NCBI GenBank assembly: GCA_964016885.1
Contig: OZ024756.1
Location: forward strand, 40,796,001 to 40,860,000
DNA: 64,000 bases
Source: Eledone cirrhosa
Lineage: Eukaryota
Direction of reading: 5' to 3'
In this document: positions 32,001 to 35,000 of the stretch, piece after piece
How positions within the stretch are numbered: position 1 is the first letter of the stretch
Layout: each line of letters opens with the position of its first letter
The notes under the pieces: generated by a model
Database searches by the model: none
What the model was told of the DNA's origin: nothing
Seen by the model: only the letters and a program-made list of their open reading frames with translations
Translations under genes and position numbers: made by a program

Positions 32001-35000
32001 TTCTTCCTGTATAGTAGCTTTTGTACTACTTCTTGAAAGTAACTGGACTGGAGGTTCCTCTTCTCCCTGCATAGAAGCTTTTGAACTTCTTCTTGAAATT
32101 AACCGGATTGGAGATTCTTCTCCCTGCATAGAAGCTTTTGTACTTCTTCTTGAAATTAACTGGGCTGGAGGTTGCTCTTCTCCCTGCATAGAAGCTTTTG
32201 TACTTCTTCTTGAAATTAACTGGGCTGGAGGTTCCTCTTCTCCCTGCATAGAAGCTTTTGAACTTCTTCTTGAAGGTATCTGGACTGGAGGTTCCTCTTC
32301 TCTCTGCATAGAAGCTTTTGAACTTCTTATTGAAGGTAACTGGACTTGAGGTTCCTCTTCTCCCTGCATAGAAGCTTTTGAACTTCTTATTGAAGGTAAC
32401 TGGACTGGAGGTTCCTCTTCTCCCTGCATAGAAGCTTTTGAACTTCTTATTGAAGGTAACTGGACTTGAGGTTCCTCTTCTCCCTGCATAGAACATTTTG
32501 AACTTCTTCTAGAAGGTATCTGGGCTGAAGGTTGCTCTTCTCTCTGCATAGAAGCTTTTGAACTTCTTCTTGAAGGCATCTGGGCTGGTGGTTCTTCTCC
32601 CTGCATAGAAGCTTTTGAACTTCTTGAAGGAAACTGGGCTGGAGGTTCTTCTTCTCTTTGCATAGAAGCTTTTGAACTTCTTCTTGAAGGTATCTGGGCT
32701 GAAGGTTCCTCTTTTCCCTGCACAGAAGCTTTCGAACTTCTTCTTGAAGGTATCTGGGCTGAAGGTTCCTCTTTTCCCTGCACAGAAGCTTTTGAACTTC
32801 TTCTTGAAGGTATCTGGGCTGGAGGTTCCTCTTTTCCCTGCACAGAAGCTTTTGAACTTCTTCTTGAAGGTATCTGGGCTGGAGGTTCCGCTTTTTCCTG
32901 CATAGAAGCTTTTGAACTTCTTCTTGAAGGTATCTGGGCTGGAGGTTCCGCTTTTTCCTGCATAGAAGCTTTTGAACTTCTTCTTGAAGGTATCTGGGCT
33001 GGAGTTTCCGCTTTTTCCTGCATAGAAGCTTTTGAACTTCTAGAAGGTAACTCAGCTGGAGGTTCCTCTTCTCCTTGCACAGAAGCTTTTGAACTTCTTC
33101 TAGAAGGTAACTGAGCTGGAGGTTCCTCTTCTCCCTGTACAGAAGCTTTTGTACTACTTCTTCTTGAAGATAACTCAGCCGGAGGTTCTTCCTGCATACC
33201 AGCTTTTCTACTACTTCTTCTTGAAGATAACCCAGCTGGTGGTTGCACTTCTGACATTAAAGCTTTTGTACTACTTTTTCTTAAATGAGAATGAGCTGAA
33301 TGTTCTCTCTGTATAGAACCTTTTCTACTACTATTTTTTCTTGAAAGTAACCTAGCTGGAAGTTCCTCTTTTTCCTGAGTAGAGGTTTTAGTGCTTCTTG
33401 TAGGTAACTCAACTGGAAGTTTCTCTTTTCCCTGCACAGAGGATTTCCTTCTTCTTCTTGAATTTAACATAGCTGAAGTTTCCTCTTCTCCCTGCAAAGA
33501 GTCATTCCTACTTCTTCTTGTAAGTAACTGAGCAGGAGGTTGTCCCTGCACAGAAGATTTTGTACTTCTTCTTGAAGGTAACTGGGCTGGAGGTTCCTCT
33601 TCTCCCTGTATAGAATTATTGTTATAAATAAGTAGTTTTAGCTTTTATCACATCCTGAGAACTGTAAATAAAGCTGATTATAAAAAGGACAAGAAATGAA
33701 ACCCTAAACTCAAAATGACAAACTTTTACGATTACACCAGATATCTAACATGAAAAACAACAAAGCCTTTAAAATAGTTGATCTCATTGTCTAGATTCAA
33801 GGATACTAAAGGGCCATTATGTTCTGAGGAAGATGCACAGCAGACCAAAAATGAGATGGGGATCAGTGACGTAATTTTCACCACTCTTTAAAGTGGTAGT
33901 TTTGGTGCCATGAAAGATGCACCCAGCACAACCTGTAAGGTGGATGGTTGGCATTTGGAAGAGCATCCAGCCATAGAAACCATGCCAAATATGGAATGTA
34001 ACCAGTAAGATTGGTTACTCCAGCCTGTTTGATCTCATACCATGACCTATCCAACCCATGCCAGCATAGAAAGGGGACATAGTATGATGATGATGATGAT
34101 GATGATGATGATGATGATTATACTTCAAAAGGCATACGATTATCCTTTGCTTTTTAAATGCTCTTAAAATGCAATTTAAATATCTGTTTACAAGCGTGTT
34201 CAACATAATCTAACAGAGGAAATGTCTTTTAACTAAAAAATAACACAATCACTGATGACTTCATACAGATCTGAATAAACAGATTTAAATGAGAAGAAAA
34301 GATAAGAAGTTGTACTGATCATATATTTTCTGAAGACTATTTTGACAGCCTTAAATAATACCAACTGGGAATCTATACTGAATTGAATTAAAATTTGAAA
34401 AATGGTTGAGATATAACTTTAAAAGGATAAATTATAAATTATTCCTGAGGAGACATTTGTTTGATAGGCTACTGTCACACATTGTCTGATACACCACCAT
34501 CACACATTGTCTGATAACTAAGCATTTAGAAAGGTAGACAGAATCAAATTTATGAGCAGTCACACAGAATCAAAAAGCTTTGAATTAGACCAAGGTTCAT
34601 ATTATGGCTTCCAAGCCAACTGGACAGCTTTATTATTCACAGTTTGATGTGGACAAGTCTTAAACTCATACTTAAAGTTAATGAAGTCCATCATTGAACA
34701 ACTTAAGTATTGTTTTATATGCAGATAATGTTACAACTATGAGTATTAAATGAGATAAAGTAATTCTTGTCTTTATTTTCTCATGAGATGTTTATTCCTT
34801 GTCTTTTGCCTATATATTTCTATGGTAACTTTATTTCAAATAACAAATTTAATATCTCACCCATTTCTGTATGATTTACTTTCTAAAATTTGTTCTAAAG
34901 AAACTTGAAAGAATCTGTTACACAAATCCAATTATTCAGCCCCCAGCAAGCTATCATTCCCAAACCAAGAGATCCCCAATTCTCTACATGTAAATCATCT

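Follow-up and report, generated by a model that had tools for sequence, protein, structure and literature searches.

When a segment that carries a splice donor and the intron behind it is copied inside a gene, it may create a new exon from a duplicate or divide an exon that already existed, and a locus of Eledone cirrhosa raises the question of which of these occurred. The locus lies in a window of 64,000 nt (assembly GCA_964016885.1, contig OZ024756.1, positions 40,796,001 to 40,860,000), a term used here for the whole stretch of DNA that was analysed, and its features are collected in Table 1. The answer developed below is that a copied donor probably caused exon fission, the downstream half being somewhat more likely to be skipped than to be spliced regularly through a new acceptor.

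The host gene is probably an IQ-motif gene, which we take to be Sp17-like, a name given from its combination of RIIa domain and IQ motifs. The IQ motifs match Pfam PF00612 (E 2.7e-10), and the best named relative of one of its exons is GAB1603184.1, a hypothetical protein of the octopod Argonauta hians (510-aa model) that carries an RIIa domain and IQ motifs. Its residues 294-504 are 44% identical to the two-IQ exon (47458-46892), the likeness running up to its last residues, whereas the model holds nothing resembling exons A and C or segment B. A clear match to the Argonauta RIIa part was not found within the 64-kb window, and the RIIa-coding part of the gene probably lies beyond the window end. 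The IQ exons, exon A, segment B and exon C would form one gene, as suggested by their strand, their order and a phase of 0 throughout. The frame of the two-IQ exon continues for 22 codons beyond the presumed donor (46891-46826), where two proteins, P0025 and P0160 (62% identical), continue with similar residues, and the extension may be either a conserved intron start or an alternative end.

Protein searches yielded no relatives of segment B among longer proteins, to which that search was restricted, and none of the first 100 residues of exon A among proteins of 593-1889 aa. Nine multi-IQ proteins were retrieved, and none of the 160 proteins compared matched exon A, segment B, exon C or the exon tail at E under 0.26. 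An exact look-up of seven frames of the window found none of them (0/7), and an atlas search returned no usable match.

Table 1. Features of the locus, in window positions
Feature	Position	Strand	Description
Exon A	35200..38436	-	3237 nt, 1079 aa, phase 0/0
Make-up of exon A			Unique N-terminal part; 57-, 60- and 63-nt Ser/Arg/Glu/Pro-rich repeat units; copied tail last
Segment B	31773..33605	-	611-codon open frame: degenerate 5' units, 60-nt units, original tail and donor
Duplicated segment	33614..35387	-	1774 bp: last repeat unit, exon tail, GT donor, 1586 bp of intron
Source copy of the duplicated segment	30552..31960	-	Continues into the native intron at 30551
Candidate new intron	33606..35199	-	1594 nt; copied segment supplies donor and body, former repeat codons the final 8 nt
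Breakpoint	33613..33615	-	2-nt TT microhomology
CAG, candidate in-frame acceptor	33606..33608	-	Probably a former Gln codon
Competing out-of-frame CAG acceptors (n=3)	33654..33675	-	Exon starts 33673, 33661 and 33654
Exon C, presumed last coding exon	25948..26089	-	Phase 0, 46 acidic residues and stop; use presumed
Upstream two-IQ exon, presumably of this gene	46892..47458	-	From Pfam IQ and Argonauta alignment
Upstream exon carrying a single IQ-like motif, presumably of this gene	53925..54086	-	From sequence

The window holds other elements as well. The intron before exon C holds a Tc1/mariner-type element (26340-27630) between TA runs, with the transposase in two frames and weak Pfam matches to HTH_Tnp_Tc3_2 and DDE_3, and frames at 20225-21040 and 55072-55650 resemble fragments of a reverse transcriptase and of a mariner transposase, respectively. 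A minisatellite with a 44-bp unit (47875-51220; 76 copies at 96%) leaves all three minus-strand frames stop-free for more than 1100 codons, probably because the unit itself contains no stop. Two candidate micro-exons were noticed by eye on the minus strand, at 62221-62195 (27 nt) and at about 42040-42022 (about 19 nt). Towards the start of the window, positions 94-3200 comprise an N gap of 200 bases and, after it, a satellite of 2.9 kb made of A and T only, and minus-strand exons of a class II aminoacyl-tRNA synthetase (Pfam tRNA-synt_2b) occupy 3893-6412, whose product we take to resemble seryl-tRNA synthetase.

The duplication inside the gene is real DNA

Read on the minus strand from 33640 to 33590, the intron copy passes into the codons TCT ATA CAG GGA GAA GAG; the switch from intron sequence to repeat codons falls at 33614/33613, and the TT at the fusion is common to the native intron and the repeat unit. 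The junction, the CAG at 33608-33606 and the open phase-0/0 exon of 1833 nt are all located where the original prediction had placed them.

A run search listed seven runs, of which four contain the stretch; none of those four is listed as RNA, a point given no weight. The junction was compared with sequencing runs X1-X4, four of the seven runs listed (the three RAD-seq runs were left out), over the 2151 bases of 33200-35350. X1-X3 are DNA-like and come from one sample, possibly that of the assembly itself. In all three, a 65-nt contig matches 33579-33643 without a differing letter, and only 29-30 of its letters are on the intron side, against a threshold of 31 letters for a bridge; about 30 letters is presumably near the maximum for a 31-mer assembly where the intron side is common to two copies. 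Depth summed over X1-X3 is 22.3 at the junction, 22.2 in sequence found only in segment B, 20.7 in sequence specific to the first copy (the 351-bp part) and 22.8 in sequence specific to the second (the matching deletion). The shared intron reaches 37.6, a 1.69-fold increase where two copies would give 1.77. The joint left by the 351 bp in the source copy (30552-31960) is likewise present in X1-X3. Moreover, position 33362 shows G>A (plus strand) in X1 and X3 and not in X2, changing Leu to Phe at codon 82 of segment B; the site is likely heterozygous, which suggests that both haplotypes carry segment B. A haplotype mis-assembly joining two alleles in tandem, named by the original prediction as one of the findings that would overturn it, could draw on a copy difference small enough to be allelic (1.4%) and on the short intron side of the bridging contig, yet it is very unlikely because the junction, which contains no N, stands at the depth of its single-copy flanks in three runs and segment B carries a variant of its own.

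Extent and origin of the copied segment

The two copies, 35387-33614 and 31960-30552, differ by 20 substitutions over 1408 aligned sites (1.4%), which identifies the source of the candidate intron sequence, and by indels of 351, 10, 6 and 2 bp, the 351 bp being absent from the source (downstream) copy. Between them lies 1.65 kb of unduplicated array (33613-31961) with no recent duplicate. The 27 short units of segment B differ from the nearest exon A unit at 199 of 1562 sites (12.7%), a figure that covers 27 of 29 pieces (one of 117 nt and one of 150 nt were left out) and becomes 193/1533 when one mis-paired 30-nt tail piece is dropped; only 31 of the 1615 31-mers of the array in segment B also occur in exon A. 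The recent duplicate thus amounts to about 188 of the 1833 nt of segment B, and about 550 of its 611 aa have no recent upstream duplicate. The copy begins and ends at one and the same repeat register, and its excision leaves an open exon of 4890 nt, or 1630 codons. Segment B is, therefore, likely to be the old 3' half of a giant exon rather than an exon made from the duplicate of an existing one, its array units lying about 13% from those of exon A. The unsplit ancestral exon is itself a likely state, read from a single genome.

These measurements change what the duplication means for the protein. The original prediction described a tandem duplication, and the duplication is real, but the term applies to only 188 nt of the exon; the copies are not head to tail, and a tandem state in the past is possible. 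It was correct that the downstream piece has no native acceptor. Conversely, the evidence does not support segment B being a partial exon duplicate that adds 611 aa. The computed lengths are 1630 residues for the unsplit exon, 1690 with segment B included (a net gain of 60) and 1079 with segment B skipped (551 fewer). Nor is there anything to rescue, as had been proposed, since the copied donor is already in frame with the last exon, exon C.

The simplest account is a single event: a break within the repeat array of the giant exon would have been mended by copying that began in the last repeat unit and ran into the intron, and the repaired end would then have been rejoined at the TT microhomology. 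Templated break repair can proceed by such a route, with copying followed by rejoining at a microhomology. The same structure could have arisen if a tandem duplication came first and the upstream copy then lost its array; the two paths are indistinguishable, and segment B is old coding sequence in both.

Splicing from the copied donor

The preferred reading, to which we assign a probability of roughly 0.5, is that the 1774-bp copy sits between two arrays that are not duplicates of each other and formerly made up one exon of 1630 codons, and that the copied donor is spliced mainly to exon C, segment B being mostly skipped. Its structural part is held with considerable confidence, and the skipping of segment B in the main mRNA is judged slightly better than even. 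The protein would then keep its frame and its C terminus with 551 fewer repeat residues, and the CAG at 33606 would serve, if at all, as a minor acceptor or one confined to certain tissues. The open state of segment B on what look like both haplotypes counts against this reading.

Segment B runs without a stop from 33605 to 31773 and ends at the same GT donor as exon A (35200). The CAG at 33606 is preceded by 34 nt free of AG, with branch-point-like motifs at -24 and -20 and no G from -24 to -5, and its pyrimidine fraction is 0.55, compared with 0.65 at the exon A acceptor and 0.60-0.75 at the presumed native sites; these are simple counts against five presumed native sites, one of which (62220) was set wrongly by one base. 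By these features it appears to be a fair candidate that resembles the exon A acceptor, and it stands as the best in-frame choice, as originally proposed. An in-frame CAG near any breakpoint is to be expected, given that segment B contains 47 of them. Three out-of-frame CAGs located 49-68 nt upstream have higher pyrimidine fractions (0.65-0.75), and each leads to a stop within 12 codons. The open frame of segment B was considered as proof of selection and rejected, because it is little above chance: simulated neutral survival was 0.51 without indels and 0.10-0.33 with them.

Regular use of this CAG as a splice form is a tentative proposition. If it were the regular acceptor in at least one tissue, the main mRNA would read A-B-C and the old exon would have acquired a 1594-nt intron while growing by a net 60 aa; the original prediction proposed this splice form, with a different history. 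Such an intron gain, which we regard as possible and rather doubtful, is favoured by the likeness of the candidate to the exon A acceptor (in pyrimidine fraction, lack of G and long AG-free stretch), by the open frame of segment B and by a mirror case that the available text of PMC4974935 presents as demonstrated in potato. It is weakened by the more pyrimidine-rich CAGs upstream, by the neutral probability of the open frame (0.10-0.51) and by the RNA-like run described below, in which a contig passes the donor unbroken and no join to 33605 is found among the joints listed. A bolder version, equally tentative, would have one templated repair event supply the donor, the intron and an instant chimeric acceptor, whose branch point and A/T tract would derive from the copied intron and whose AG would come from a Gln codon, so that a block of 611 residues came to be switched by tissue. 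If true, the intron would have been born so recently that its source, its breakpoint and perhaps an unsplit allele are still readable.

Run X4, whose type is unrecorded, comes from a different sample from X1-X3 and appears to be RNA, judging by a break that falls precisely at the donor. Record 26 of this run (225 nt, depth 9.28) starts at 35396 and lies on 35199-35350 with the letters of the exon A copy, its other 27 letters, beyond the donor, being unplaced in 33200-35350; the donor at 35200 thus appears to be used. No joint between 35200 and 33605 occurs among the joints listed for 33200-35350, though joints with sides of 21-25 letters do appear there. Splice forms were simulated in a 31-mer graph and compared with this contig: inclusion of segment B ends it one letter past the donor, while splicing of A to C together with splicing of the IQ exon to C ends it 28 letters past the donor, as in X4, with a predicted start at 35413 against the 35396 seen. 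Record 26 therefore weakly favours the skipping of segment B, within a comparison that left exon C and acceptors below 33200 outside its region, used contigs, which drop minor forms, and represents one library and no other tissues. In the simulation, the 28-letter end is produced by a second form in which the IQ exon (46892) is joined directly to exon C (26089), omitting exon A and segment B.

Other records of X4 bear on the animal from which it came. Record 27 carries letters of the first copy and leaves the window sequence exactly at 33614, so that the X4 animal may lack the insertion. In the opposite direction, contig breaks at 33764 and 33772, where the 10-bp indel begins and ends, suggest that both intron types are present there. 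X4 gives no cover over 33272-33559, the unique 5' part of segment B, and no genomic-junction contig among those listed; this was not counted as evidence. The X4 word share of 0.26 was considered as the exonic share of the region and dropped, because it derives from intron pieces and the tail of exon A.

The distribution of differences between the copies could point to an older history. Between 35057-35387 and 31630-31960 the density of differences around the donor is about three times that of the distal intron. Substitutions number 10 in 331 sites near the donor and 10 in 1077 distally (Fisher p 0.013, or 0.07 if clustered changes are counted as events), and this density fits an older duplication with partial conversion, against the preferred reading. 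Specifically, the 3' part of the exon could have been duplicated in tandem long ago, the arrays diverging independently while gene conversion homogenised the tail and intron, and segment B could be a functional exon kept for a long time. Divergence indeed falls from about 13% in the array to 3% near the donor and 0.9% in the distal intron, and an unused frame at 6% divergence per lineage would remain stop-free with a probability of 0.002. Some units of segment B also group with exon A units in a unit tree, which was built on units of 50-70 nt with no support values and settles nothing. This history is nevertheless unlikely: conversion would need to reach the exact breakpoint, the degenerate part of segment B fits several places in exon A equally well (74-76%) with no single colinear partner, and the gradient loses significance (p 0.07) once each cluster of changes is taken as one. 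Still less probable is a shorter cassette, in which the donor at 35200 would be spliced to another in-frame CAG deeper in segment B, below 33200; the 47 in-frame CAGs and the run comparison, which covered only 33200-35350, leave room for it, but many unit starts are probably similar enough to 33605 to have aligned there, and the purine-rich context makes for poor acceptors (as counted for CAGs above 33420).

Relation to known systems

A literature search, with most subscription journals outside it, found no paper on this locus, and Sp17 comes up in the available text of PMC11202624 only in connection with a clam. Few recent intron gains have a known source, according to the available portions of PMC4974935 and PMC3443670. 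The locus may be counted as one form of intron gain through internal duplication, a class of mechanism that is already known, and under either outcome it is a single locus within that class. If segment B is skipped, the locus would show how a duplication can quietly cost a repeat protein about 550 residues and leave its frame intact.

In Drosophila, the part of PMC2891723 that was available describes exon duplication involving proto-splice sites (AG/GT), where repetitive coding sequence favours duplication, as it may here. In contrast to that classical model, no duplicated AGGT supplies both sites in Eledone cirrhosa: the donor (GCG|GTACTG) is a copied native donor, and the candidate acceptor is a CAG in a separate codon. 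The model set out in the available text of PMC3443670, in which latent splice sites after internal duplication lead to coding nucleotides being added (imprecise intron gain) or removed, names both outcomes considered here; as far as that text goes, it duplicates an exonic segment, whereas here the copy includes a true donor and intron body, and splicing straight to the next exon offers an in-frame alternative that does no harm.

The closest likeness is offered by the potato RdRp gene, in which, according to the available text of Ma, Lan and Niu 2016 (PMC4974935), a duplication spanning an exon-intron boundary gave rise to an intron whose splicing is documented by 106 RNA reads. Both cases feature a recent internal duplication over a splice boundary, copies that still align, and one inherited splice site paired with an exonic one, which is a candidate in Eledone cirrhosa. 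In the potato gene, on the same text, the acceptor was inherited, the donor was cryptic and the copies are tandem; here the donor is inherited, the candidate acceptor comes from the exon, 1.65 kb of unduplicated array lies between the copies and the splice is a candidate only. If the CAG at 33606 is used, the locus would represent a traceable intron gain with a copied donor and a recruited acceptor, the mirror of the potato example.
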